A stretch of DNA of 64,000 nucleotides from Alkalispirochaeta sp. (GCA_965242725.1 CBDESZ010000015.1:1-64000); one strand, 5' to 3'. Numbered from the stretch's first letter, positions 11,266-24,722 are shown. A program made the numbers and translations. The notes: generated from the letters alone by a model not told the origin.

Positions 11266-11356
11266 CCCCACCGAATCTCCGATTTGACCTTGCCCTCGGC
11301 GGCAACTCTTCCTATGATGCGGAACCTGAATCCCTTTGAGCTGGAGGTGCCTTACG

Positions 11357-11626
11357 ATGCGGGCCGTGATAACGGTAGTGGGAAATGATAAGCCGGGAAT
11401 AATTGCCGCGGTGAGCGGAGCGCTGGCGGAGAAAAACGTCAACATCCTCGATATCAGTCAGACGATCATGCAGGATGTCTTCACCATGTTCATGCTCGTG
11501 GAGACGGGCGCGATGGACATCTCCTTCAAACAGCTGCGGAACCTGCTCACCGAGCTGGGAACCCAGATCGAAATGAGCATAAACATGCAGCACGAAGACG
11601 TCTTTCAGTCGATGCATCGCATTTAG
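11357..11626 (+). CDS. ACT domain protein (UPF0237)
   Basis: MRAVITVVGNDKPGIIA...NILDISQT...FQSMHRI; usual partner of UPF0210. Confidence 0.92.
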   Translation: MRAVITVVGNDKPGIIAAVSGALAEKNVNILDISQTIMQDVFTMFMLVETGAMDISFKQLRNLLTELGTQIEMSINMQHEDVFQSMHRI

Positions 11627-11635
11627 AGAGGTACC

Positions 11636-13000
11636 ATGCTGCTTTTTTCTCCCTTTGAAATTCGTGAAACGACACAAATGCTCACCGAGCAGAATCTCGA
11701 TATTCGAACGATCACCATGGGCATCAGTCTGCTCGACTGCGCCGGAACGAGCCCGAGACAGGCGCGCCTGAAGGTCTACGACAAGGTAACCTCCGCAGCG
11801 GAGCGGCTCCTGGAGGTTGGTGAATCCATAGAAGTCGAGTACGGCATACCGATCATTAACCGACGCATTTCAGTAACGCCGATCTCTCTTCTCATAGAGG
11901 CGACCGGTGAAAAAGAGCCCATCGAATTCGCCAGGACCCTCGACCGGGCGGCACAGGCGGTGGGCGTCGATTTTCTCGGCGGGTACAGCGCCCTTGTACA
12001 CAAGGGAATGACTCCGGGAGAGCAACGGCTCATCGACAGCATTCCCGACGCCCTTGCGGAGACGGAGAAGGTGTGCGCCTCGGTGAACGTCGCCACCAGC
12101 CACGCCGGCATCAACATGAACGCGGTAGCCCACATGGGTGAGGTGATATACCAGCTTGCACGGAACACGGCGGACCGGGGCGGATTCGGCAACGCCAAGC
12201 TCGTCGTCTTTTCCAACGTCCCCGAGGATAATCCGTTCATGGCCGGCGCCTTTCACGGAATAGGGGAGTCGGAACGGGTTATACACGTCGGCGTGAGCGG
12301 CCCCGGCGCGGTCTTTTCCGCCGTCCGGGAGCACCCCGACGCCACCTTTGACGAGATCGCGGAAATCGTAAAGAAGACCGCCTTCAAGATTACCAGAATG
12401 GGACAGCTCGTACTCGGCGTCGCCGCCGAACGTCTCGGCGTGGAGCCGGGTATCGTCGATCTCTCCCTCGCGCCGACACCGGCTGTGGGTGACAGCGTCG
12501 CCCGCATCCTCGAGGCGATGGGTATCGAGCATACCGGCGGTCCCGGCTCAACGGCCGCCCTTGCGCTCCTCAACAACGCGGTGAAGAAGGGGGGCATGAT
12601 GGCCTCCTCACGAGTCGGCGGACTGAGCGGTTCCTTCCTGCCGGTGAGTGAGGACGAGGGCATGGCGGAGGCGGCGGAGCTCGGCGCCCTCTCCATAGAG
12701 AAGCTCGAGGCGATGACGGCGATCTGTTCCGTCGGCCTCGACATGATCGCCATTCCAGGGGATACCTCACCGTCGACGATTTCCGGAATCATCGCCGACG
12801 AGATGGCCATCGGCGTCATGAACGGCAAGACCACCGCCGCCCGACTCCTGCCCGTTCCCGGCAAAACGGCGGGCCAGTGGGTCGAGTTCGGCGGTCTCCT
12901 CGGGCGCGCGCCGATCATGCCGGTAAGCGCATTTTCCTGCGAGGATTTTGTCCGTCGCGGCGGAATCATTCCCGCCCCGATTACCTCTTTCAAGAACTAG
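11636..13000 (+). CDS. PFL-like family protein (UPF0210/DUF711)
   Basis: [45 protein letters not shown]. Confidence 0.93.
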
Positions 13001-13803
13001 GCGGGACCCACGACCGGATTGACCAGCTTTCCGATTTTATCGATTTCCAGCTCCATCACATCCCCCTCTTTTAAAAAGACAGGGGGGGTGCGAGTAAAGC
13101 CGACGCCGCCGGGGGTGCCTGTGAGGATAAGGGTTCCTGCCGGCAGCGTAGTGTCCTCCGACACATAGCGAATAATCTCGGCCACCGAAAAGATCATGTC
13201 CGATGTGTTTGTCTTCTGCATCACTTCGCCGTTCAGGCGGCAGGTCAACTCCAGTTTCTGGGGGTCGCCGATTTCGTCCGGAGTGACCAGACAGGGTCCG
13301 AGGGGGCAGAAGGTGTCGAAGCTTTTGCCCCGAACCCATTGCCCTCTCCCGGCATTTTTCTGCCAACGCCGTGCGGAAATGTCATTGGCTACCGTATATC
13401 CCGCAACGCTATCGAGTGCGGTCTCCAGGGTGGCGTCTCGGACAGACTTGCCGAGAACGACTGCCAGCTCGGCTTCGTAGTCCACCTCCGGTGTCTTCGC
13501 GCAGACTTTCGGGATCACGATAGGATCGTCAGGATTGGCGACGGTATTCAGGTTCTTCATGAACAGGGTGGGGTATCGGGGCAACTCATTACCCGTTTCT
13601 TCCGCGTGGGCGTGGTAGTTCAACCCAATGCAGAGAATACCGGTCGGTATAAAAGGTGCCAGCAGTTTCTTGACGGCCACCCTGTTGCCGGTGACCGTAA
13701 GGGATGAGAAAAAATCCCCTTCCAGGACGCTCGCCATGCCGTCCCGGTAGTCGCAGCCGAGAACGATATCGCCCTGTCCGTCGATAAATCGTATGATCTT
13801 CAT
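12997..13803 (-). CDS. fumarylacetoacetate hydrolase family protein
   Basis: [38 protein letters not shown]. Confidence 0.93.
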
Positions 13804-13865
13804 GAATCCTCCAATATCAGGTACATGCTTTTGTCCGCCGTCAGAGGGCCAATATAAACCTTTGC

Positions 13866-15074
13866 CTAAAGGACCGCTCGTACAATTTCGTCAAACTCGT
13901 CATCCGTCAGCAGTCCGCGTTTGGCGATACCCACCTTCTTTACCCGCAGGACCAGTTCCTCGACGGTTTCATCGGAGACATCGGTGTATCCCTTTCTTTC
14001 CAGGTGATACAGTATGGAAAGTTTCCCGCTCTTTTTTCCGAGGACGACATCGCCGTTGCGACCCGTCAGTTGTGGTTCGGTGGCAAACATCGCCAACGGC
14101 TTTTTTATGACGAGATCTACGCCGATACCCGATTCCCGCGTGAAGTTACGCGGACCGATCACCGGTTTATTGACCGCCGGTGTAATCCCGGTGATGGATT
14201 CGATTTTCGATGCAAGATCAACGAGCCGATCCATTCTATACGGATTTGGTAGCTGGTACAGAACCTTCATCGCCATTATCAATTCTTCAGTTGCCGTGTT
14301 CCCGGTTCGTTCACCGAGACCGTTGGCGGCTCCGTGAACAACATTCGCGCCCGCTTCAAGGGCCGCGAGCTCAGTAGCGAGGGCCATCCCGAAATCGTTA
14401 TGAGTGTGTATTTCGACGGGTAATCCCGTTTTATTTATCACATGACGGACAAGGTATTTAATCGCAGTAGGCAATGCGCAGCCTACGGTGTCGACGATAC
14501 CGATACTGTCGGGCGGCGCATCCCGCATAATGCCTTCCAGAAGGTGTTCGAGATCCTCAAAACGCGCCCGGGTTGTATCGTACGGGAAGTATACCGTGTG
14601 CAGTCCATGCTCCCGTGCATAGTTGATTACCGGGACACTCCTCCTCAAAACCTCCTCCCAGGTCCAGCCGAATTGATATACAAGCTTGGGATATCCAATA
14701 GGTATCTCAATAATGACACCGTCCACGCCCGCATCGATAGCACTGTCTATATCGTCTTTTCTCGCTCGTGCGAACGAATATATTTTTGCATGAAGCCTGG
14801 CATTCACTATTGAACGGATCGCAGCGAAATCGTCTTCCGAGACGGCAGGCATGCCGGCCTCAATACGCTCGACACCAACGCCGTCGAGGAGACGGGCAAT
14901 TTCAAGTTTATTTTCCGGAGTCATCACCACTCCCGGCGTTTGCTCTCCGTCCCTGAGCGTCACATCATGGATTATCACGTTGTCCGGTATAGAAAATTCG
15001 CTCTCCACGGGATCAACATAATTATAAGGGCTTACCCACCACTGATCGGGTTTGTGATACTCATGTTTACTCAT
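13866..15074 (-). CDS. DRE-TIM metallolyase, homocitrate synthase/LeuA-like, no regulatory domain
   Basis: DVTLRDGEQ, HTHND, GLGERTGN, LGKKSG; RBS before ATG 15074. Confidence 0.88.
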   Translation of the reverse strand: MSKHEYHKPDQWWVSPYNYVDPVESEFSIPDNVIIHDVTLRDGEQTPGVVMTPENKLEIARLLDGVGVERIEAGMPAVSEDDFAAIRSIVNARLHAKIYSFARARKDDIDSAIDAGVDGVIIEIPIGYPKLVYQFGWTWEEVLRRSVPVINYAREHGLHTVYFPYDTTRARFEDLEHLLEGIMRDAPPDSIGIVDTVGCALPTAIKYLVRHVINKTGLPVEIHTHNDFGMALATELAALEAGANVVHGAANGLGERTGNTATEELIMAMKVLYQLPNPYRMDRLVDLASKIESITGITPAVNKPVIGPRNFTRESGIGVDLVIKKPLAMFATEPQLTGRNGDVVLGKKSGKLSILYHLERKGYTDVSDETVEELVLRVKKVGIAKRGLLTDDEFDEIVRAVL

Positions 15075-15227
15075 AATGTCTTCCTTTTCTCTGGTTTGTT
15101 GTAACCGCTCCGTTTTCATCGGGAAACTTGAATTTGCGTGTGTCCGTCGGTATTTGTAATTTAATTGTCACCTCGTCTCCTTTCGGTGCGCATGCGGCGC
15201 CGATTCTGATCTGATTCGCATCACAAC

Positions 15228-16736
15228 TCAGTAAACTCCGGTCCACCCACCTATCACGTAAACCGTCATGGCGACAATGAAACTGGCAACCACGGTCATG
15301 ACCGTTCCGGCAATCGCCATATCCTTTATCGAGAAATACCCCGCCGAATAGGGGATCACATTTGTTGGAGTCGATGTAACCAGGATGAATGCCATACTCG
15401 TGGTGAGTGCCGCCGGAATCGCTATGGAGAGAACGTCAATGTTCAACGTCGTCGCCAGTGTGATCATGATTGGAATGATTATTGTCGCGGTAACGGTATT
15501 GCTCGAGAGGAATATCTTCAGGAACCCGATAATGAGCACAACGAGAAAGACCCTGACAAACGGTCCGAGAGAGCCGATGCCGCCAAGAAAAACCACCGCC
15601 ATCCATTCTACCGACCCGGTTCGGTACAACGTTATTCCGAGGGAAATTCCGGAAACAATAAGGATAATGCTGTCCCAGCTGATCTCTTTTTCGATCGTTT
15701 TCCAATGTTCTCTTCCCACGCCGGGAAAGAAAAAGAGACTCGCCGTCAGGAGGACGGGCATTGAGATTGGAATGTCGATTCCGAGAAGCTTCTCCAACAG
15801 CGGCGTTGTAATCCAGAGGGCGACGGTGAGCAGAAAGATCGCCAGAGTTACTTTCTCGGTCCTATCCATCGCCGGAAACTCATGGTACGCCGCACGCAAT
15901 TCCTTTTTTGTTTTTTTGAGGTGCTTCATCTCGGGCTTGAAGAAGAAAAGGAGCATTGCCCAGGAGGGCAGTATTAACAGTATTCCGGCGGGGACACCGT
16001 ACATCATCCAACCTGCAAAGGTAAGTTTGATACCCGCCAATTCATCGAGGAACTCTATCGTCAAGGGATTGGGGCCCGCACCGGAAGGCGCCATGATTCC
16101 GCCGATAATCGGTCCCCACGCGCAGGCAATCATAAGTGCCTTTCCAAAGTTGCTCTTTAAGGGAGTTACACCTTCTTCGCGTAGAACGGCAACACCTAAT
16201 GGCATAAGCATGGCGGCGACCGCGGTATTCGTGATCCACATCGAAAGAAATCCTCCAACTACCAGAAAACCGAGGAGGATCATGGAAGTCCGATTGCCGG
16301 TTCTGGAGAGAAGAAACGCCGACACGCGATCACCGAGGTTGCTCCGGGTTATGAAACTCGAAAGCACCAGGACACCGATAAAGAAAATGAAAATATGGTT
16401 GCCGAAACCGGCTTGAACGATAGAGGAGAAGGAATCGACCCTTAACACGGTGAGGAGAAATACACCGAACAGTCCAGTGATATGGAAGGGAAGGGCTTCC
16501 GTAATCCATAGAATCAGCGCGAAGAGCAACACCCCAACGGCTGCCTGACCGTCCCGGGTCAATTCGGCGGCGCCAGCAATACGAATTGACCCGGGGAGAG
16601 AAAAAAAGCGGCCTGCCAGTGGAAAGACCAGTGCTATTGCGATCACGGCCCATTGAAAGGTGAGGCTCCTCTTCCCGCCTATGGAGGGCTTGGTATTCGA
16701 AGATCTGTCGATCCGTGGATGTATCGGTCCGTTCAT
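15228..16736 (-). CDS. DASS/SLC13 di-/tricarboxylate transporter
   Basis: SMWITNT, PSGAGPN, SSNT, TSTPTN motifs; many TM helices. Confidence 0.9.
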   Translation of the reverse strand: MNGPIHPRIDRSSNTKPSIGGKRSLTFQWAVIAIALVFPLAGRFFSLPGSIRIAGAAELTRDGQAAVGVLLFALILWITEALPFHITGLFGVFLLTVLRVDSFSSIVQAGFGNHIFIFFIGVLVLSSFITRSNLGDRVSAFLLSRTGNRTSMILLGFLVVGGFLSMWITNTAVAAMLMPLGVAVLREEGVTPLKSNFGKALMIACAWGPIIGGIMAPSGAGPNPLTIEFLDELAGIKLTFAGWMMYGVPAGILLILPSWAMLLFFFKPEMKHLKKTKKELRAAYHEFPAMDRTEKVTLAIFLLTVALWITTPLLEKLLGIDIPISMPVLLTASLFFFPGVGREHWKTIEKEISWDSIILIVSGISLGITLYRTGSVEWMAVVFLGGIGSLGPFVRVFLVVLIIGFLKIFLSSNTVTATIIIPIMITLATTLNIDVLSIAIPAALTTSMAFILVTSTPTNVIPYSAGYFSIKDMAIAGTVMTVVASFIVAMTVYVIGGWTGVY

Positions 16737-16740
16737 CGTG

Positions 16741-17631
16741 TCATGTCCCCGTTGTCAAGACGGATTTGAGAAGTTCCCCAACAAGACGCGGCCGTTCCGC
16801 GACCAACGCCCCGGCATCGGTCAATGCGGCGATTTTGTCTTCAACGGAACCGGTTCCTCCGGATACAATGGCACCGGCATGTCCCATCTGCTTACCTTCC
16901 GGAGCGGTCCGGCCCGCGAGAAAGGCGACCAACGGTTTGGTAAACCGTTTCTCGATTATCTCCTTCGCTACCTCCTCCTCCATCGTACCCCCGAGTTCAC
17001 CGATAACGACCACCGCTTCAGTCTCCGGGTCCTCTTGGTACCTGGGTAGCATCTCCGCAAAACGGGTGGCCGGAACGGGGTCACCACCGATCCCGATCAA
17101 GGTGGAAACTCCAAAACCCGCCGCGACGACCATAGAAGTCACTTCATTGGTCAGGCTCCCGCTTCGTGTCATAACACCGATAGAGCCCGGTTTATATACG
17201 CGGTCTATCCAGTATGGAAAAAAGCCCATCATCGCCTTACCGGGGCTGATTACTCCACTGGTGTTTCCGCCGATGACCACAGCTTCGGCCGCTCTGGCGG
17301 CGTGCCGGATCTTTACCGCATCGTGAAGGGGTATCCCGTCGGCGACGGCGACAATCTTCTTGATACCCGCCTCAAGCGCTTCAAGGACAGCGTCCATGGT
17401 GAGGTGAGGGGGAACAAAAATGATAGACGAGTCCGCCTCTTCCGACGCCAATGCCTGTTGAACGGTGTGGAAGACGGGAATGTCATGGATGCGCCTGCCA
17501 CCCTTTCCCGGGGTGACGCCGCATGTGACGGCGGTACCCATTTCCAGGATGTGCTTTGTCCAGAAACTCCCCTCCGTTCCCGTGATACCCTGGACGAGCA
17601 CCCGTGAGTGCCGATCTATAAAAATGCTCAT
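16741..17631 (-). CDS. sucD: ADP-forming acyl-CoA ligase alpha subunit (SucD-like, divergent)
   Basis: VQGITG, GVTPGKGG, GIGGD, phospho-His motif MGHAGA; ATGA overlap with the beta subunit. Confidence 0.88.
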   Translation of the reverse strand: MSIFIDRHSRVLVQGITGTEGSFWTKHILEMGTAVTCGVTPGKGGRRIHDIPVFHTVQQALASEEADSSIIFVPPHLTMDAVLEALEAGIKKIVAVADGIPLHDAVKIRHAARAAEAVVIGGNTSGVISPGKAMMGFFPYWIDRVYKPGSIGVMTRSGSLTNEVTSMVVAAGFGVSTLIGIGGDPVPATRFAEMLPRYQEDPETEAVVVIGELGGTMEEEVAKEIIEKRFTKPLVAFLAGRTAPEGKQMGHAGAIVSGGTGSVEDKIAALTDAGALVAERPRLVGELLKSVLTTGT

Positions 17632-18752
17632 CGGCGCCTCTCCTTCCGGGATATCTCGACGGCACGGCGGACCGCTTCTTCCGTATCGAGGAGCGGTTGC
17701 AGTCCGGCCGCTTTGAGCGTCTGAAATGCCTCTTTCTCGTTTGTTCCGCGGATACATGTGATGATCGGTACGTCCGGTCTGAGTCTGGTGATCGCCTCGA
17801 CCACCCCCTGTGCCATTACGTCGGCTCGGGCTATTGTCCCGAACGTCACGATGAGAATAACTTTGGGATTGGTCCGGAGGCAGAGCTCCATCGCTTGTAC
17901 CGCTTTCCGATAGTTGGGACCGCCAAACTCCAGATAATTGGCGATGGTGCCCCCTTCGTAGTGTACAAGATCAAACACAGTGGTAGTGAGGCCGGCTCCC
18001 GCACACATGAGACTGATATCACCATCAAACGGGAGATAAGGGATTCCCTCTCGTGCCGCGTCGCGTTCTATCTCGGTCTGATACGGTTTTTCCTTGATCC
18101 ACGTCTGGCGGTTGAGGGAGTTATTGTCGATCGCGATCTTTCCGTCACCGGCTATGAGCCGATCGTCGGATGTGACAAAGAGGGGGTTGATTTCCGCAAT
18201 CTCGCAATCGAGTTCCTGAAAGATTGAGCCGAGGTTGACCAATACGGCAACGACTTTTTGTGCCACCTCCGGTGAGAGGTCGAAGGAGTATGCAAACTGT
18301 CTCGCTTCAAACGGACGGATTCCCAGGGCGAGGTCAAAATGAGACCGGACAATTGATTGCGGCCTGGTTTTTGCCAGTGTCTCTATTTCCACACCGCCCT
18401 CGGTCGATCCGATAATAAGACCTGAGGCAGAAACAGGATCGACGGTAACGGAGAGGTAAAGTTCTTTACGAAAATCAATTGCCTCTTCGATCAGAACCCG
18501 TTCTATTTGATTCGCCGAATTATCGAGCAGAGCGTCCGTTTCCGCGACCGCCTCTTCATGTGATGCAGCAAATCGAATCAGTCCTGCCTTTCCCCGTCCG
18601 CCCTGAAGTATTTGCGCTTTCACAACGCACGGCACGCCTGTGTGATCCAACGCATCCGATACTTCACTTGGACTGGAGACGAGATAGCTCCGCGGAACCG
18701 GAATGCGGTGTACCGAGAAGATCTCTTTTGCCTGATACTCAAATAAATTCAC
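17628..18752 (-). CDS. sucC: ADP-forming acyl-CoA ligase beta subunit (SucC-like, ATP-grasp, divergent)
   Basis: NLFEYQAK, KAQILQGGRGKAG, GGVEIE, EINPL, GAGL; GTG start. Confidence 0.88.
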   Translation of the reverse strand: MNLFEYQAKEIFSVHRIPVPRSYLVSSPSEVSDALDHTGVPCVVKAQILQGGRGKAGLIRFAASHEEAVAETDALLDNSANQIERVLIEEAIDFRKELYLSVTVDPVSASGLIIGSTEGGVEIETLAKTRPQSIVRSHFDLALGIRPFEARQFAYSFDLSPEVAQKVVAVLVNLGSIFQELDCEIAEINPLFVTSDDRLIAGDGKIAIDNNSLNRQTWIKEKPYQTEIERDAAREGIPYLPFDGDISLMCAGAGLTTTVFDLVHYEGGTIANYLEFGGPNYRKAVQAMELCLRTNPKVILIVTFGTIARADVMAQGVVEAITRLRPDVPIITCIRGTNEKEAFQTLKAAGLQPLLDTEEAVRRAVEISRKERRR

Positions 18753-18800
18753 TCGTCAAATCCTTCGTTCCGTTACGAAATGGCGCTCTCTAAAGAATCC

Positions 18801-18843
18801 TTGACGTCCCGTGAGGGTAATGATAACATGTATATGTATACAA
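18801..18843 (+). promoter_or_regulatory. sigma70-type promoter of gntR with overlapping TGTATACA palindrome
   Basis: TTGACG-N17-TAACAT with extended TG, then GTATATGTATACA. Confidence 0.7.
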
Positions 18844-18862
18844 AATCAAGATAGGAATCAAG

Positions 18863-19579
18863 ATGAAAGAGGATTCATTTCACAAGGAGATCGGCGAGAA
18901 ACGTCCGATTCAAGCCATCGAAAAACCGGAAAGTCTCCGGAAGGAAGTTTACGAGCGCATCAAGAACGCCATAGTTACCAATAAATTCAATCCGGGACAG
19001 CGCCTGGAAGAAAAATACCTGAGTGATTCACTGGAAGTGAGCCGAACACCGATCCGTGAGGCTCTCACACGGCTGGAGCACGAAGGACTCGTCGGATCAA
19101 TTGCCAATCGTGGTTCATTTGTCAAACGTTTTACCGTCAAAGATATTCTCGAAATACTGGAACTAAGAGAGGTGAACGAGGGATTGGCAGCGCGGCTCTT
19201 TGCCGAACGTGCGGCCGAACAGGATGTGATGGAGTTGCGTGGAACTATGACGCCTTTCAACGTTGATACCGTTGAAGACAATATCGACGAATACAATCAG
19301 GCGAACGTTGAATTTCACAACATTGTCATGCAGGGCGCTCGAAACGGACGATTGGTCGCCGCGCTGGAGAACCTCTATGACCACTACGCGGTAGCCACGA
19401 CTCTGCGTATCATTCCTCTTACCAAGAGGGGCGCGCGATCCCTTCGGGAGCATCTGCGGATTATCGCGGCGATAGAGGAGAGGGATTCTCAGAAGGCGGA
19501 AGAGGAAATGCGCCTGCATATTCGGTCGATCATCGACGATTTCATACGGAGCTCAGACGAAGTTTCAGATTTGATGTAG
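18863..19579 (+). CDS. GntR family regulator (FCD domain)
   Basis: LEVSRTPIREAL HTH; NVEFHNIV and EHLRIIAAI FCD motifs. Confidence 0.95.
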   Translation: MKEDSFHKEIGEKRPIQAIEKPESLRKEVYERIKNAIVTNKFNPGQRLEEKYLSDSLEVSRTPIREALTRLEHEGLVGSIANRGSFVKRFTVKDILEILELREVNEGLAARLFAERAAEQDVMELRGTMTPFNVDTVEDNIDEYNQANVEFHNIVMQGARNGRLVAALENLYDHYAVATTLRIIPLTKRGARSLREHLRIIAAIEERDSQKAEEEMRLHIRSIIDDFIRSSDEVSDLM

Positions 19580-19881
19580 CGGTCGGCGGGAAAGCCGGTA
19601 CGGCAACTTGGTCAGTTCGACCCGAAGGGAGGCACCCGTTCCACGATGAGAACATTGTGGAGAGAGTCTATAAACGCCGGTAATACAGGGACGTCCGGGT
19701 TTCGGCGGTCATTAAATAAATCCGACTCCTTGTGTGGAGGTGATAAAGGGTTCAGGAGGCTCGCTATGCCATGAGAAACGAATAAAACGCCGTGCAGGCA
19801 CAGTTTTGGGGTATCCGGTTGTGCCCGACCGCCGTCGACGGAAGGGTAGCATGTGACCACAAATAAAAAGAAGGAGAAAAG

Positions 19882-20883
19882 ATGATGAGTAGACTCACGA
19901 GAATTGCACTTGCGCTTGCCCTTATATTCGCAGTTGCAATATTTTCCGTTTCCGGAGCTGGTCAGGCGGAGCAAGAGCAGGCTATGTCTGCGGATTACCC
20001 AAATGACAATATTACCGTCTACGTTCCGTTCTCGGCAGGTGGCAGTACCGATCTCATGGCGCGTATAATCGCAGAGCCGCTCGGAGAGATTCTGGGAGTA
20101 CCGATGGTTGTTGAGAATAGACCTGGAGGCGGTGGAGCCATCGCTATGAATGCACTGTCGATTGCCGACCCGGACGGGTATACGATCGCCCTTACCTCTC
20201 TTGGTCCGGCGATGCTGACGCCAAACCAGGGAGATGTCGGTTATACTGATGAAGAGTTTGCGCCCATCAGTCAGACCTCTTTCCTTCCGTCGATGCTGTT
20301 TGTAAGTTCAGATTCACCATATGAAACGTTGGCGGAATTGGTTGCGGCGGCGAAAGGTATGCCCGGTGAAATGACCTATTCCTCTACCGGTGCCGGCGGA
20401 ACGGGGCATGTCGCGTGTGAATTGTTTCAGGAAGAACTGGGTGAGAAAGGCCTGTTCAATATGGTTCCCTTCGATAGCGGGACAGAGGCTACCACGGCGG
20501 TGTTGGGCGGACATATCGAGTTCAGCCTTGGTGACGCCGGTGATACCGCGGATCACGTTGCAGATGGAAACCTGAGAGTTCTCGCGATAGCATCGGAAGA
20601 ACGGGATCCGATGTTTCCCGACGTACCTACGTTCCGGGAACTGGGATATGACGTCGTTATCGGACCGTGGTGGGGATTTGCCGCACCAGCCGGAACACCA
20701 AAAGAGATTATTGATATACTGGATGACGGAATTAAACAGGCGCTGGAAAATCAAAATGTTGTACGGCAAATGATGAACATCAATAGTCCGGTGGTATACA
20801 CGGAAACCACGAAATTCACCGAGAATTGGCATCGGGATTTCGATATGTATCGGACGATGATTCAGGCGATACAGGGAAATTAA
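19882..20883 (+). CDS. tctC: tripartite tricarboxylate transporter substrate-binding protein
   Basis: VPFSAGGSTD, VENRPGGGG, PDGYT, PDVPTFRELG. Confidence 0.93.
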   Translation: MMSRLTRIALALALIFAVAIFSVSGAGQAEQEQAMSADYPNDNITVYVPFSAGGSTDLMARIIAEPLGEILGVPMVVENRPGGGGAIAMNALSIADPDGYTIALTSLGPAMLTPNQGDVGYTDEEFAPISQTSFLPSMLFVSSDSPYETLAELVAAAKGMPGEMTYSSTGAGGTGHVACELFQEELGEKGLFNMVPFDSGTEATTAVLGGHIEFSLGDAGDTADHVADGNLRVLAIASEERDPMFPDVPTFRELGYDVVIGPWWGFAAPAGTPKEIIDILDDGIKQALENQNVVRQMMNINSPVVYTETTKFTENWHRDFDMYRTMIQAIQGN

Positions 20884-20894
20884 ATACTAACACT

Positions 20895-20937
20895 GTACCG
20901 TGCCAAGGTAGTTGGTGCCTGGTCAATGGCACGGTAC
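20895..20937 (+). other. 11-bp stem-loop after tctC
   Basis: GTACCGTGCCA (20895-20905) and TGGCACGGTAC (20927-20937). Confidence 0.6.
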
Positions 20938-20964
20938 GACTGTCCGTCGGGACAACCAAAAAGT

Positions 20965-21000
20965 TTGACAGCGGTATTTGCGCATGGTAACATGTATACA
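20965..21000 (+). promoter_or_regulatory. internal sigma70-type promoter for tctBA with TGTATACA palindrome
   Basis: TTGACA-N17-TAACAT with extended TG, overlapping TGTATACA. Confidence 0.7.
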
Positions 21001-21114
21001 AATACAAACATACATCGAATCACTGGTGGCATATAGGTTGCGGCGGTTCAAAGAGTCCTGGTTGCACGTCATAACGAGGAGGTGAGAATCGAGTTAATTG
21101 CTTGATGCTAAATT

Positions 21115-21567
21115 ATGAAAAAAATATCTATGGATCTAATAGTTTCATCGCTGTTTTTCATATCTGGATTGGGAATGCTTGCCGTTTCGTCCCAGTTACC
21201 ATTCCGTACAAACGTTACGAACTTTGCCGGTCCGGGAACATTTCCCGTCGGGCTGACGATTATCATAGTATTTTTTTCTGGAATTTTAATCGTAAAAGAA
21301 GTTATCAGGATTTCAAAGGGAACTGCAAACGCTTTAAAAATAACAAAAAATGATCTAATTAGAGTTGTTTCAATTATTGTAAGTTCAATCATATACATTG
21401 AACTTCTTCCCGTGGTCGGTTATTTGGCGGCCACTATCGGATTTACCGCTCTGGCTTTATGGATATTTGGATTCCGTAAAAAATTGCCTTTCGCAGTTAT
21501 TACGATTGTATTTCCCCTCGCTATTCTCGTCATTTTCAAGGAATTTCTCAATATTCCACTACCATGA
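21115..21567 (+). CDS. tctB: tripartite tricarboxylate transporter TctB
   Basis: 4 TM, GPGTFP, C-terminal FLNIPLP. Confidence 0.88.
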   Translation: MKKISMDLIVSSLFFISGLGMLAVSSQLPFRTNVTNFAGPGTFPVGLTIIIVFFSGILIVKEVIRISKGTANALKITKNDLIRVVSIIVSSIIYIELLPVVGYLAATIGFTALALWIFGFRKKLPFAVITIVFPLAILVIFKEFLNIPLP

Positions 21568-21586
21568 TACATAGGAGCGGAGCAAA

Positions 21587-23062
21587 ATGGGTTTTGCACT
21601 GAATTTTGTTGTTAATGCGCTGTTTTGTTTTTTAGGCACCAGTATTGGAATTGTCTTTGGTGCCATTCCCGGTCTGACCGCGACAATGGCTATCGCTCTG
21701 TTTTTACCTTTTACCTTCGGCATGGACCCGGTGTTGGCCTTTGCCCTTTTGTTGGGCCTCTATGTCGGGGGCGTTTACGGCGGATCGATAACTGCCATCC
21801 TGATCAATACTCCCGGTACACCGGGAGCGGCTGCCACCGCGGTGGAAGGGTATCCCCTGGCGAGACAGGGAAAAGCTTTGGACGCGCTGTCACTGGCAAC
21901 GGTGTCGTCATTTATCGGAGGAATGCTCAGTTGTGGAGTGTTGATCGTAATGGCCCCCCAGCTGGCCCGGGTGGCTCTACGGTTTGGACCGCCGGAGTAC
22001 TTCGCCATATCCCTCTTCGGGTTGAGCATGGTGTCCAGCATCGCATCGAAGAATATCGTGAAAGGAATAATAGCAGCCGCTTTCGGTCTGTTGGCGGCGA
22101 CGATAGGTATCGATCCGATAGTCGGAACGATGAGATTGACTTTCGGCAATCTGAATCTAGTTGCCGGGATTGGTCTGATCGCCTCGTTAATCGGTCTATT
22201 CGCAATTTCCGAAGTCCTCTCGAAACTGGAAACGATAAAACGAACCAAGGGGATAGAAGACAAAGACATCGAAAAAATAACCGGGAACTTTGTAAGTCTG
22301 AAAGTATTACGGGCAAATATTGTGAACTTTCTCAGATCCGCTGCAATTGGTATCGGAATCGGTTTAATACCAGCGGTAGGGGTGAGTATGTCGAATTGGA
22401 TCGCCTACAATGAAGCCAAACGGGCAACCAAGACACCGGAACTCTATGGAGAGGGTTGTTTTGAGGGAGTTGCCGCTTCAGAGACGTCCAACAACGCCGT
22501 TACCGGTGGTGCCCTCGTTCCAATGCTCACATTGGGAATCCCCGGAGACGCAATGACAGCTGTCCTGCTGGGTGCGTTGTTGATTCAGGGGCTGGCACCG
22601 GGACCAAAACTCTTCATAGATACCCCGGAGGTTGTGACCGGTATATACGGAATGCTGGCACTGGCAAACGTATTCATGCTGATCATCGGGCTCGGGATGA
22701 TTAACATTTTTGTAAAAATTATTAAAGTGCCGACAAACGTCCTGATGCCGCTTGTTCTGGTCATGTGCTATATCGGATCATATGCCATCCATAACAACTT
22801 CTTCGACGTATACGTCACGTTGTTTTTCGGTATTGTTGCATTCCTGTCCCTGAAGGCAAAGTATCCGCTTCCGCCGATGCTCTTAGGTATAATTCTGGGA
22901 CCAATAATTGAGTCCAATTTCAGACGGGCCATAACCATGTCCCGCGGCAGTTTGGGAATATTTTTTGAGCGCCCGTTGTCGGCGACATTTATCGTAATCG
23001 CCATTGTCGCAATGATCTATCCCGTGTTGAGGGAGTATATCAAGCCCAGGGTAAAGACGTGA
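21587..23062 (+). CDS. tctA: tripartite tricarboxylate transporter TctA
   Basis: GAIPGL, NTPGTP, ETSNNA, LTLGIPGD. Confidence 0.95.
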   Translation: MGFALNFVVNALFCFLGTSIGIVFGAIPGLTATMAIALFLPFTFGMDPVLAFALLLGLYVGGVYGGSITAILINTPGTPGAAATAVEGYPLARQGKALDALSLATVSSFIGGMLSCGVLIVMAPQLARVALRFGPPEYFAISLFGLSMVSSIASKNIVKGIIAAAFGLLAATIGIDPIVGTMRLTFGNLNLVAGIGLIASLIGLFAISEVLSKLETIKRTKGIEDKDIEKITGNFVSLKVLRANIVNFLRSAAIGIGIGLIPAVGVSMSNWIAYNEAKRATKTPELYGEGCFEGVAASETSNNAVTGGALVPMLTLGIPGDAMTAVLLGALLIQGLAPGPKLFIDTPEVVTGIYGMLALANVFMLIIGLGMINIFVKIIKVPTNVLMPLVLVMCYIGSYAIHNNFFDVYVTLFFGIVAFLSLKAKYPLPPMLLGIILGPIIESNFRRAITMSRGSLGIFFERPLSATFIVIAIVAMIYPVLREYIKPRVKT

Positions 23063-23086
23063 GGTAGCTGTATCAAAAGTTTGTGA

Positions 23087-23878
23087 ATGGCGCGTATGAA
23101 CTCCTACGTAAAGATGGAGATTTCCGATAAGATCGTACTTCTGACCATTAACCGGCCGGGAGCGTACAATGCTATTAATCTACCTACGGCGCAGGAGCTT
23201 GCGGAACATCTCGTGACCTTGGGTTCCAATCGGCAGGTACAGGGGATCATTATCACCGGCGCGGGTACAGCTTTTTCAGCGGGCGGTGATATCCGGCAGA
23301 TGATGAACGACCCCGATGGCCCGGCGGCGACCTTTTCCCGACTCGCGGCCGTGGTAAACACCTGCATCACTGAGATTCGGCGGATGCGGAAACCGGTGGT
23401 TGCCGCAGTAAACGGGATCGCCGCCGGCGGCGGTTTTTCTCTCGCCCTGGCCTGTGATTTTCGAGTGATCGCCGGGACGGCGCGACTGAAACAGGGTTTC
23501 ACGACTAATGGTCTATGCATCGACGGCGGCGGCACCTTTTTGCTCCCCCGGCTGGTAGGGTTGGCGCGGGCCCTCGAAATTGCGGCCCTGGATGAACCGA
23601 TCACCGCAGAAGAGGCGCTGACACTGGGATTGGTCAATCGGGTGGTGGAACCCGACGAGGTCGTGGCCGCCTCCCGACGGCTGGTGGATCACATACGTCA
23701 AAAATCGCTGCATACCTTCGGCTGGTCCAAACTACTTTTGACCAACGCCTTCGAGACGCCGCTGGAAGCACAACTGGAAATGGAACGACAGGGACTGTTC
23801 AGCTGCGCCGCCCACGCCGACGGCCAGGAGGGAATGAAAGCCTTTCTGGAAAAACGAGCACCCCGTTTCAATCAGTAA
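23087..23878 (+). CDS. enoyl-CoA hydratase/isomerase family (PaaG-like)
   Basis: FSAGGD, VNGIAAGGG, LALACD, AFLEKRAP. Confidence 0.9.
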   Translation: MARMNSYVKMEISDKIVLLTINRPGAYNAINLPTAQELAEHLVTLGSNRQVQGIIITGAGTAFSAGGDIRQMMNDPDGPAATFSRLAAVVNTCITEIRRMRKPVVAAVNGIAAGGGFSLALACDFRVIAGTARLKQGFTTNGLCIDGGGTFLLPRLVGLARALEIAALDEPITAEEALTLGLVNRVVEPDEVVAASRRLVDHIRQKSLHTFGWSKLLLTNAFETPLEAQLEMERQGLFSCAAHADGQEGMKAFLEKRAPRFNQ

Positions 23879-23882
23879 CCGA

Positions 23883-24722
23883 TCAGTCAACTGGCGAAGA
23901 AATAATGCGGCTCCTCTTCATCTCCATGATTTCGTTGGTCAGGCAAAAACCTTTCAGGAACGCGTCAAAGGACTTGCCGAATCTCTCGTCTACATGAAGA
24001 ACCTGGTCGGGACAGATATATACACAATGGAGACATTCGATGCACTTCGTGGGGTCCGCCTTTCCCGTTATTGCATCAAATGCATGTGTCGCACACTCCT
24101 TTTCACACCGTCGACACATTCGGCACGTTTCAACCGTTCGCTCCGGGATCGCTCTCAACGTTCTTTCTTTGGATTCGGGACCTCCAAACAGGCAAATGGT
24201 CTCGTTGTAACCTGATGGCTTCTGCAATGGTAAAATATCCGGAGACGGAGACCGGAATATTCGACATGCCCGGACCGCATATTCCGACGCGATCGCGAAA
24301 TCCGACGCATCAGGTCGATTGGGCAGGATCGTCCACCCTGTAAGATTGAAGGTATGCCGACCGGGAAACTCTGCGGACAGACATACCCTGAAACCGGCGG
24401 CCTCCAGTAGTCGTTTTGTATGGAAATGGGCGAAACCGGCACTTCGTGCTCCGTAAGTGAAAAACATGGTCGCCGGTTTTCCATGGCCTTTCAGTGTTTG
24501 AATCCAGTCGTTTACTACCGACGGTGCAAAATCCATGTACACCGGAAATCCGAATACCGCGCCGTCAAATCGATGAAATCCGAGCCGATTCTGTCGTGAT
24601 GAAAATGAGGTTACATCAAAGACTTCAACGGTACATCCGCGTTCTATGAGTCCGGAAGAGACAACCTTGGTTATAGACGCGGTAACACCGGTTCCCGAGA
24701 AAAACACAAGGGCAATACGCAT
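23883..24722 (-). CDS. EFR1-type flavodoxin-ferredoxin fusion
   Basis: FSGTGVT flavodoxin N-terminus; CRMCRRCEKEC and CIECLHCVYICP 4Fe-4S motifs. Confidence 0.85.
   Translation of the reverse strand: MRIALVFFSGTGVTASITKVVSSGLIERGCTVEVFDVTSFSSRQNRLGFHRFDGAVFGFPVYMDFAPSVVNDWIQTLKGHGKPATMFFTYGARSAGFAHFHTKRLLEAAGFRVCLSAEFPGRHTFNLTGWTILPNRPDASDFAIASEYAVRACRIFRSPSPDILPLQKPSGYNETICLFGGPESKERTLRAIPERTVETCRMCRRCEKECATHAFDAITGKADPTKCIECLHCVYICPDQVLHVDERFGKSFDAFLKGFCLTNEIMEMKRSRIISSPVD

Follow-up and report, generated by a model that had tools for sequence, protein, structure and literature searches.

A divergent block of genes in the 64,000-nucleotide stretch of Alkalispirochaeta sp. DNA analyzed here (GCA_965242725.1 CBDESZ010000015.1:1-64000, the whole of which is called the window) is best read as two modules under one GntR regulator: a ligase–carrier trio, consisting of the two subunits of a SucCD-like ligase and a DASS carrier, and a DRE-TIM enzyme with the fold of LeuA. 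Sequence comparison places the trio in the sulfoacetate family, with a predicted role in interconverting a small C2-sulfonate or malonate with its coenzyme A (CoA) ester and ATP, and indicates that the DRE-TIM enzyme would bind a 2-oxo acid at its metal without possessing the base for enolising acetyl-CoA. In the scheme that we prefer, the DRE-TIM enzyme would cleave 2,4-dioxoadipate onto CoA, the ligase would form ATP, and the carrier would export malonate; the probability of this full scheme is put at slightly under 0.4. The ligase, carrier and transporter types are already known, as is the fold of the DRE-TIM enzyme, and the reaction is predicted.

A sequence-only reading had described the block as a new tricarboxylate (citrate) cleavage pathway. 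The genes that it named, with their coordinates, the divergent GntR arrangement, and the absence of a citrate-synthase-fold gene from the block were all confirmed, and the locus does look like the CoA-linked catabolic unit under one regulator that was envisaged, with a putative operator shared by both arms. The pathway itself did not survive, as both the ligase and the carrier fall in a family already known to handle sulfoacetate. The minus-strand arm comprises the following genes, in order away from the divergent spacer; the first two overlap by 4 bases.

17628..18752, minus strand: sucC-like gene for the ligase beta subunit (SqwK/SauC clade), 374 aa, with loops CAGAGLTTTV, FGGPNY and VTFGTIARAD
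16741..17631, minus strand: sucD-like gene for the ligase alpha subunit (SqwL/SauD clade), 296 aa, with phospho-His motif MGHAGA
15228..16736, minus strand: DASS carrier (TIGR00785)
13866..15074, minus strand: DRE-TIM enzyme, LeuA/homocitrate-synthase fold (PF00682 and PF22617), catalytic His, Glu and Tyr absent
12997..13803, minus strand: FAH-family protein, nearest to 2,4-diketo-acid (acylpyruvate) hydrolases

The DRE-TIM enzyme and its family

The DRE-TIM protein has 402 residues from its likely start (the longest open reading frame reaches 15119), and its predicted model (predicted local distance difference test score, 92) has homocitrate synthase as top fold match (6ktq, TM score 0.84). 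It shares with the Claisen-type synthases (6ktq, LeuA, CimA, and MAM synthase 6e1j) the fold, the RDGEQ motif, the His-x-His metal site, the oxo-acid Thr, and the C-terminal helical subdomain (PF22617). Arg89, Asp90, Gln93, Thr257, His288, and His290 of MAM synthase are retained as Arg41, Asp42, Gln45, Thr196, His223, and His225, whereas Glu227, His388, and Tyr399 are replaced by Tyr165, Gly318, and Met329, respectively. His388 is the proposed base of MAM synthase, and the H388A variant is inactive, according to the part of that paper available (PMC11532901). Tyr165 and Gly318 are invariant in all 81 sequences compared, as is Met329 in 56 of 56, and further homologs carry the motifs FPYD (120/120), RESG[IL]G (119/120), and LGKKSG (120/120). 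With none of the three catalytic residues (His, Glu, and Tyr) kept, the enzyme is very probably not a normal synthase, as the sequence-only reading had held. It scores below all curated synthase cut-offs (best, 344.7 vs. 517; nifV, 281.5 vs. 462.9; citramalate synthase, 139 vs. 450), it differs from the Claisen-type synthases also in its catabolic neighbors, and a true citramalate synthase is encoded elsewhere in the genome.

Two other groups of the superfamily were rejected as homes for the protein. The sequence-only reading had pointed to HMG-CoA lyase as an acyl-CoA lyase of the superfamily, and the protein bears little resemblance to it: the score against the HMG-CoA lyase model is 49.8 bits (cut-off 246), HMG-CoA lyase entries in the PDB give 25–45 bits, and their TM scores of about 0.6 likewise lie far below that of homocitrate synthase. 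Membership in the 4-hydroxy-2-oxovalerate aldolase group was set aside on a model score of 80.5 bits (cut-off 229) and the lack of an adjacent acylating dehydrogenase, there being no dehydrogenase at the locus.

Loss of the catalytic His extends well beyond the window. The residue is missing in 81 of the 126 full-length 50%-identity representatives scored near the clade (P0361–P0510; 24 of 150 rows were excluded by length), and 63 of these 81 keep the Arg, His-x-His, Thr/Ser, and GK-motif Lys, with varying pocket residues. The His-less proteins may be a wide and so far uncharacterised part of the LeuA fold, and many further activities are possible among them. They are named isopropylmalate or homocitrate synthase in databases, and the ESM Atlas gives no more than family-level names. 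Among 8000 sequences scored, 3668 relatives were found at E up to 1e-80, a number that may include more distant synthases. The open-licence literature searched yielded no description of this clade, of its link to malonyl-CoA decarboxylase, or of an acylpyruvate thiolase.

Gene context across phyla makes malonyl-CoA the probable product of the family. The DRE-TIM loci examined were the best 80 of 556 confirmed (57–65% identity; 49 of them flanked by 5 kb or more on each side), and by tblastn they contain a hydroxyquinol-type intradiol dioxygenase (26 loci; best structures, PnpC and chlorohydroxyquinol dioxygenase), a RutE-like nitroreductase (17), a malonyl-CoA decarboxylase (13), and FAH proteins (9). 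The decarboxylase lies within 400 bp of the DRE-TIM gene in five loci, and the dioxygenase within 135 bp in seven. The 13 decarboxylase loci span Alphaproteobacteria, one gammaproteobacterial genome, and one Pirellulaceae genome, in which decarboxylase, dioxygenase, DRE-TIM, and transporter-like genes are consecutive (L048); no open reading frame in these 13 loci has the AMP-binding motif, which we take to be diagnostic of AMP-forming ligases. At the level of genomes, the decarboxylase family occurs in 37 of 50 with the DRE-TIM enzyme vs. 0 of 14 controls. The other 13 are mostly anaerobes by record titles, and a search of 5 decarboxylase-less genomes for malonate decarboxylase alpha (PF16957) gave weak partial matches only. 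Among 151 genomes sampled from one order, 9 have the DRE-TIM enzyme, 15 the decarboxylase, and 14 the dioxygenase; all nine DRE-TIM genomes carry both of the others, the decarboxylase being present in 9 of 9 vs. 6 of the 142 remaining genomes, and in one of the nine (L163) it is a near neighbor of the DRE-TIM gene. Malonyl-CoA decarboxylase was not found in the window genome.

Several neighborhoods have a recurrent composition of their own. A conserved alphaproteobacterial cluster (L033, L046, L051, L052, L055, L058–L061, L063, L067–L069, L073, L075, L076, L078) encodes YciI-like and OsmC-like proteins, a RutE-like nitroreductase, a TRAP transporter, a hydroxyquinol-type dioxygenase, a GntR regulator, and the DRE-TIM enzyme, often together with malonyl-CoA decarboxylase and a GST; no monooxygenase was seen in it, and the compound that it imports may be a hydroxy-benzoquinone. 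In anaerobes (L140–L143, L028, L047, L057), the DRE-TIM enzyme or a sister clade at 45–51% identity accompanies a cyclase-family hydrolase and often a molybdoenzyme of the xanthine dehydrogenase type, which suggests that an N-heterocycle (e.g., dihydroxypicolinate) is hydroxylated and opened hydrolytically to a 2,4-dioxo acid. One locus whose record is titled Bordetella parapertussis (L007) falls in a GTDB order sample with acidobacterial genomes and has a gene order like that of L001, and the title may be wrong.

The ligase and its carrier

The ligase is almost certainly a member of the sulfoacetate-CoA ligase (SqwKL/SauCD) clade. A tree of 32 beta subunits puts the window protein, with a long terminal branch, inside a 100/100 clade of 25, which includes ligases from sulfo-transketolase clusters and from Desulfovibrio sulfoacetate clusters; this comparison used clusters of the same layout, with Desulfovibrio-named proteins, in place of the assayed Bilophila or Acholeplasma sequences. 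The alpha subunit is 61–71% identical to members of the clade and 44–52% to other SucD proteins. The acid-site loops of the clade are retained in both subunits, and the beta subunit departs at 6 of 143 clade-conserved positions (one of which is the start codon), none of them within the three loops.

The carrier and the gene order follow the ligase. The ligase clade is held by 17 of 60 relatives in 18 loci, to whose trio the window ligase and carrier are orthologous in the same order; a full carrier 60–71% identical to the window DASS protein stands behind the ligase in 13 of the 18, and identity to the Desulfovibrio cluster carrier is 40%. Of the 22 loci used for comparison, a SauS-like dehydrogenase is present in 21, and a split transketolase together with an isomerase of the RpiB type in 17. 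The acylating aldehyde dehydrogenase (SqwD/SauS) present next to the ligase in those 21 loci is absent from the window locus, and two SauS-like homologs are encoded on another contig (C31) of the same genome. In the closest metagenome ligase loci (4 of 14 informative; beta 54–55%, alpha 61–63% identity), an aldehyde dehydrogenase and the ligase are accompanied by a DASS carrier or a Tct set, and proteins identical to theirs carry Desulfovibrio names; this is the layout described for SauS-SauCD-SauI/SauXYZ in the sections available (PMC10413351).

The biochemistry of this clade is known from two pathways, each cited from partial text. SauCD of Bilophila wadsworthia runs in the activating direction; it is inactive on succinate, reaches 20% on 3-sulfopropanoate, and with malonate reaches 7% and gives detectable malonyl-CoA, citrate not being in the panel as given there (PMC10413351). 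Like the window locus, the SauCD-SauS-SauXYZ-SauI system unites an ADP-forming ligase of the clade, a related DASS carrier, and a tripartite tricarboxylate transporter; unlike it, the window locus has no acylating aldehyde dehydrogenase and has DRE-TIM, FAH, and crotonase genes instead of TauF/IseG, and its TctC is about 31% identical to that of the sulfoacetate cluster. SqwKL runs in the ATP-forming direction, which is that proposed for the window ligase, in a sulfo-transketolase variant (SqwGH-SqwI-SqwD-SqwKL) that yields sulfoacetate and ATP and is known from Spirochaetes among others (PMC12890257). The window locus differs from this variant in having no transketolase, RpiB-type isomerase, or SqwD, the proposed source of the CoA ester being the DRE-TIM enzyme.

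Two other identities of the ligase were considered and rejected. The sequence-only reading had taken it for a relative of citryl-CoA synthetase, from which both subunits are distant: the beta subunit scores 210 bits against succinyl-CoA synthetase, 90 against citryl-CoA synthetase (6hxq), and 73 against ATP-citrate lyase (6hxj), and the alpha subunit scores 298 against succinyl-CoA synthetase vs. 162 against the citryl-CoA synthetase/ATP-citrate lyase side. The acid-binding C-terminal 135 aa of the beta subunit barely match the citryl-CoA synthetase large subunit (15.8 bits, E 0.11), compared with 29 bits for ATP-citrate lyase and 50–67 for succinyl-CoA synthetases, and Pfam assigns Ligase_CoA, not Citrate_bind. 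The likeness to these systems is confined to the SucCD-like architecture, and the block has no citrate-synthase-fold partner. That the ligase is not the tricarboxylic acid (TCA)-cycle SucCD, as the sequence-only reading had maintained, agrees with the beta subunit score, which falls below the SucC cut-off (311 vs. 370 bits), and with its separate branch, the TCA-cycle copies lying across a 100/100 branch; the alpha subunit alone narrowly exceeds the SucD model PRK05678 (337.9 vs. 336). The SucC of the TCA cycle in this genome scores 489 bits and is encoded on contig C5 beside genes for fumarase, malate dehydrogenase, and succinate dehydrogenase.

The SauS-like genes on C31 have a context of their own. 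In C31:93000-112300 (L144, L145), inositol-type genes (named by eye) are interleaved with the two SauS-like dehydrogenase genes (542 and 459 bits; cut-off 600), one of which lies behind a transaldolase-like gene, while the other heads a group encoding a CoA transferase, an HMG-CoA lyase above its cut-off, and a split transketolase. Both dehydrogenases sit on long branches beyond the SqwD/SauS clade. Malonate semialdehyde may be their substrate, oxidised to malonyl-CoA, and this would be a second feed for the window ligase. At C31:112400-113700, broken carboxyltransferase and Na-pumping decarboxylase beta pieces lie beside the transaldolase gene, and an intact set is present at C2:33900-37400. 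In one relative (L118, G019:C151:1-17000), the dehydrogenase–ligase–carrier module stands behind a transaldolase (44% identical to that of C31), not a transketolase, with a beta-decarboxylating dehydrogenase gene and then an opposed Tct set after it; here too the module is put to a non-standard use.

Proposed reaction and alternatives

In the proposed mechanism, intradiol opening of a 1,2,3,5-tetrahydroxybenzene-type compound would give 2,4-dioxoadipate, and TctCBA would import this dioxo acid or its lactone. The DRE-TIM metal would hold the 2-oxo-acid end and stabilise the pyruvate enolate while the C3–C4 bond is cut, the acyl part passing to CoA as malonyl-CoA and pyruvate being released. 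In aerobes, malonyl-CoA decarboxylase would consume the malonyl-CoA; at the window locus, the ligase would convert it to malonate with formation of ATP, the DASS carrier would export the malonate, and the FAH protein would hydrolyse acylpyruvate side products such as acetopyruvate. The left arm would then follow the logic of SqwKL (thioester to ATP, acid exported) with a different source of thioester, and it is read as cleavage, ATP formation, and export because the ligase clade accepts malonate. Functional coupling of the DRE-TIM enzyme to the ligase at this locus is considered slightly more probable than its absence, and CoA-dependent thiolysis of 2,4-dioxoadipate, argued from the chemistry, a little less probable than an even chance.

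Cleavage of 2,4-dioxoadipate is the simplest reaction because the dioxygenase, one further enzyme, and malonyl-CoA decarboxylase recur together, and loss of the catalytic His would fit cleavage because no acetyl-CoA base is needed. Carboxyltransferases and 4-hydroxy-2-oxovalerate aldolase, in the same superfamily, release pyruvate enolate. Retro-Claisen hydrolysis is near -50 kJ/mol and thioester formation near +35 kJ/mol, so that in combination cleavage onto CoA should be favorable. Loss of CO2 from 2,4-dioxoadipate gives acetopyruvate. Such intermediates occur in a fungal route in which tetrahydroxybenzene, a hydroxy-lactone, an FAH-like gene, and acetopyruvate figure in the text available (PMC10832562). 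The FAH acylpyruvate hydrolases (8gsr and that of the fungal tetrahydroxybenzene pathway, as far as the same text describes it; PMC10832562) resemble the proposed DRE-TIM reaction in substrate class and in C3–C4 cleavage to pyruvate, and the window encodes such a protein; they differ in that the bond energy is lost, whereas the DRE-TIM reaction would keep it as a thioester.

The FAH protein itself has L-2,4-diketo-3-deoxyrhamnonate hydrolase (8gsr) as its best PDB match (198 bits), ahead of FAHD1 (118 bits), which the sequence-only reading had cited as acting on oxaloacetate; it is like neither at ortholog level, the family is promiscuous, and the score against NF053535 is 227 bits (cut-off 500).

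Three other reactions were dropped. Conversion of 3,4-dioxoadipate to malonyl-CoA and malonate semialdehyde would require an acyl anion, and we know of no precedent for acyl-anion cleavage in the DRE-TIM fold. A malonyl-CoA decarboxylase activity of the DRE-TIM enzyme would be redundant with its usual neighbor. A decarboxylase role for the crotonase is possible and was put aside for want of evidence.

A wider proposal is that the His-less LeuA-like proteins form a new DRE-TIM subgroup of acylpyruvate:CoA acyltransferases (thiolase reaction) supplying the missing step from tetrahydroxybenzene to pyruvate and malonyl-CoA, which this locus couples to a repurposed sulfoacetate ligase for substrate-level phosphorylation and malonate export; taken as a whole, it is rather unlikely. 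Were it correct, several thousand proteins now listed as biosynthetic synthases would turn out to be catabolic, a three-enzyme route (dioxygenase, DRE-TIM enzyme, malonyl-CoA decarboxylase) would be available to marine and soil bacteria for breakdown of polyhydroxy-aromatic compounds, and a ligase of sulfonate metabolism would be reused for malonate at this locus. The energy of ring cleavage would be conserved as a thioester, by a reaction that would be new to the DRE-TIM superfamily, the searches made having found no example of it there. The value lies in a testable function for a large misannotated group of enzymes more than in a single locus.

A number of observations count against the 2,4-dioxoadipate scheme. 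Pairing of the ligase with the DRE-TIM enzyme is seen in one genome only, and the locus encodes no enzyme that would make the proposed substrate. An acylpyruvate hydrolase of the FAH family in the same arm would compete for that substrate, the SauS-like dehydrogenases of C31 could supply the ligase without the DRE-TIM enzyme, and malonyl-CoA could be disposed of independently of the ligase by the Na-pumping biotin decarboxylase set encoded on C2. Since every acid-site loop of the sulfoacetate clade is kept, a preference of the ligase for malonate is not visible in its sequence. CoA binding by the DRE-TIM clade is suggested by the retained subdomain, Gln45, and the GK motif; one paper gives no direct evidence of CoA binding by this motif in the text available (PMC9860122), and another, also available in part, places CoA between both domains and does not name the residues of the motif there (PMC8468904). 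Of 175 positions conserved among the 80 relatives, the window enzyme has a different residue at 12, some of them close to the active site (A38V, M197V, S248G, C249A), and loop 314–316 of its model has low confidence. As to the product, the RutE-like neighbor points to malonate semialdehyde, hence an aldolase, and AMP-forming ligases are encoded elsewhere in the 5 genomes checked, by a search that does not separate MatB, so that free malonate with a distant MatB is possible. The Fisher values within the order sampled (6e-11, or 9e-7 for the 5 new genomes) are overstated, kin not being independent; 4 of its 9 DRE-TIM genomes came from the earlier DRE-TIM list, and a second order has too few for a co-occurrence test (DRE-TIM 1/201, decarboxylase 22/201).

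The strongest competitor, which is less probable and still substantial, is a mosaic in which an ordinary ATP-forming exit of the SqwKL type, discharging sulfoacetyl-CoA or malonyl-CoA from the C31 enzymes, lies by chance beside an unrelated DRE-TIM/FAH/Tct unit. The pairing, for which the sequence-only reading had anticipated co-occurrence in other genomes, does not recur in the sets searched: SucC/SucD was detected in none of the 80 closest DRE-TIM loci, even at E 0.01, the DRE-TIM enzyme in none (E 1e-60) of the 17 relatives that hold the ligase clade, and the pair in none of 14 metagenome ligase loci, 60 relatives, 98 other genomes of the order, or 400 of the phylum. One metagenome locus (L092) has a 32% DRE-TIM match beside a SucCD of the TCA type, outside the sulfoacetate clade. 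In the order survey of those 98 genomes, 5 have the DRE-TIM sister clade at 45–51% and none the close clade. Two of the 50 genomes chosen from the DRE-TIM loci do contain the ligase clade; there it lies on different contigs, within clusters of the sulfo-transketolase type, one of which is truncated by the end of its contig. The two modules also differ in their relatives: among the matches listed from the 5.8-billion set, those of the DRE-TIM enzyme reach 89, 89, and 76%, with none above 61% for ligase beta and none above 74% for the carrier. Compared by eye, the contigs bearing the 89% and 76% DRE-TIM relatives have lengths not seen among the 120 ligase or carrier relatives listed, a weak sign since those contigs are short. 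Moreover, 153 bp separate the carrier and DRE-TIM genes, and the transaldolase and SauS-like pair on C31 is without a ligase, while L118 unites transaldolase, dehydrogenase, ligase, and carrier. Nevertheless, the trio heads the arm, between the regulator and the DRE-TIM gene on one strand, and no terminator-like site between carrier and DRE-TIM genes is listed in the promoter/terminator scan; the C31 dehydrogenases stand outside the SqwD/SauS clade on long branches; and on the mosaic view it would be a coincidence that malonyl-CoA, demonstrated as a product within the ligase clade, is also the product inferred for the DRE-TIM family.

The remaining explanations concern the reaction of the DRE-TIM enzyme. 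It is unlikely that the enzyme is an aldolase whose substrate is 4-hydroxy-2-oxoadipate or a sulfonate analogue of it and whose products are pyruvate and either malonate semialdehyde or sulfoacetaldehyde, with the FAH protein as the preceding hydratase, a SauS-like enzyme elsewhere making the CoA ester, and the ligase discharging it. The RutE-like "malonic semialdehyde reductase" in 17 of 80 loci, the SauS-like genes in the genome, and the fact that 4-hydroxy-2-oxovalerate aldolase is itself a DRE-TIM enzyme agree with such a role, but the weak match to the aldolase model, retention of the CoA-side subdomain and LGKKSG, and a recurring enzyme neighbor that is malonyl-CoA decarboxylase, not aldehyde dehydrogenase, do not. 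Activation followed by condensation is less probable again: the ligase would spend ATP on malonate or sulfoacetate, either imported or released by the FAH protein from a dioxo acid, and the DRE-TIM enzyme would condense the CoA ester with a 2-oxo acid, the alpha protons of the ester being acidic enough already to make the His base unneeded. This would account for loss of His and Glu with both substrate sites kept, and SauCD activates its substrate in Bilophila, according to the excerpts available (PMC10413351); yet malonyl-CoA decarboxylase, the most consistent partner, would destroy the substrate of such a synthase, and the locus encodes no downstream dehydratase or dehydrogenase. Very improbable is the citrate model, in which the CoA ester of citrate or a similar hydroxy acid is formed by the ligase and then cut by a DRE-TIM lyase as an equivalent of ATP-citrate lyase. 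A lyase would be consistent with the lost synthase base, the Tct and DASS families include citrate carriers by family name, and citrate is absent from the SauCD substrate panel in the text available (PMC10413351). Against this, the ligase is far from citryl-CoA synthetase and ATP-citrate lyase, the tested member of its clade rejects even succinate, SucCD occurs in none of the 80 DRE-TIM loci, the match to HMG-CoA lyase is poor, and the decarboxylase and dioxygenase links would be left unexplained. The small share of probability left over goes to schemes outside these five.

Regulation, transport genes and assembly

The divergent spacer and the plus-strand arm contain the following features.

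18801..18844, plus strand: promoter-like site (sigma-70-like, 18801-18829) and putative GntR operator with core ATGTATACAA, in the divergent spacer; direct repeat D1
18863..19579, plus strand: GntR/FCD regulator (PF00392 and PF07729)
19882..20883, plus strand: tctC, solute-binding protein (PF03401)
20965..21008, plus strand: second promoter/operator copy, between tctC and tctB, behind a hairpin
21115..21567, plus strand: tctB (PF07331)
21587..23062, plus strand: tctA (PF01970)
23087..23878, plus strand: crotonase of PaaG-like type (PF00378), with a single Asp and without the hydratase Glu pair

A 25-nt promoter/operator element, probably the GntR operator, precedes gntR (18820) and tctB (20984), and a search of the 4.3 Mb genome that allowed up to 3 mismatches against the shared consensus gives no third copy. 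Because the element is confined to these two sites, both arms would constitute one regulon, a view that the site distribution supports.

The window lies on contig C15 of a genome (G000) that is 91.8% complete, in which the citrate-synthase-fold family is encoded on other contigs. No assembly chimera was seen: a separately assembled contig is colinear with 11500-22569 without difference, and another spans 19396-24252. The four runs used in this comparison represent one sample, possibly the source, and bear on correctness of the assembly only. Convergent genes close both ends of the block (11636-13000, plus strand; 23883-24722, minus strand).

Among the products of the right arm, TctC is about 31% identical to the TctC of sulfoacetate cluster L083 and has no close solved structure, and the best matches of the crotonase are 2ej5 and the PaaG isomerase 4fzw. 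Its single Asp and missing Glu pair were read from an alignment with what we take to be the standard crotonase numbering. The hairpin and second promoter/operator that follow tctC (20883-21115) indicate that tctC and tctBA–crotonase may be separate transcripts. The left flank (11336-13000) holds an ACT-domain gene and a PRK05313 (UPF0210-type) gene, of which a second copy with 67% identity is present on contig C6. The G+C content of tctB is low, at 0.37 vs. about 0.5 in neighboring genes.

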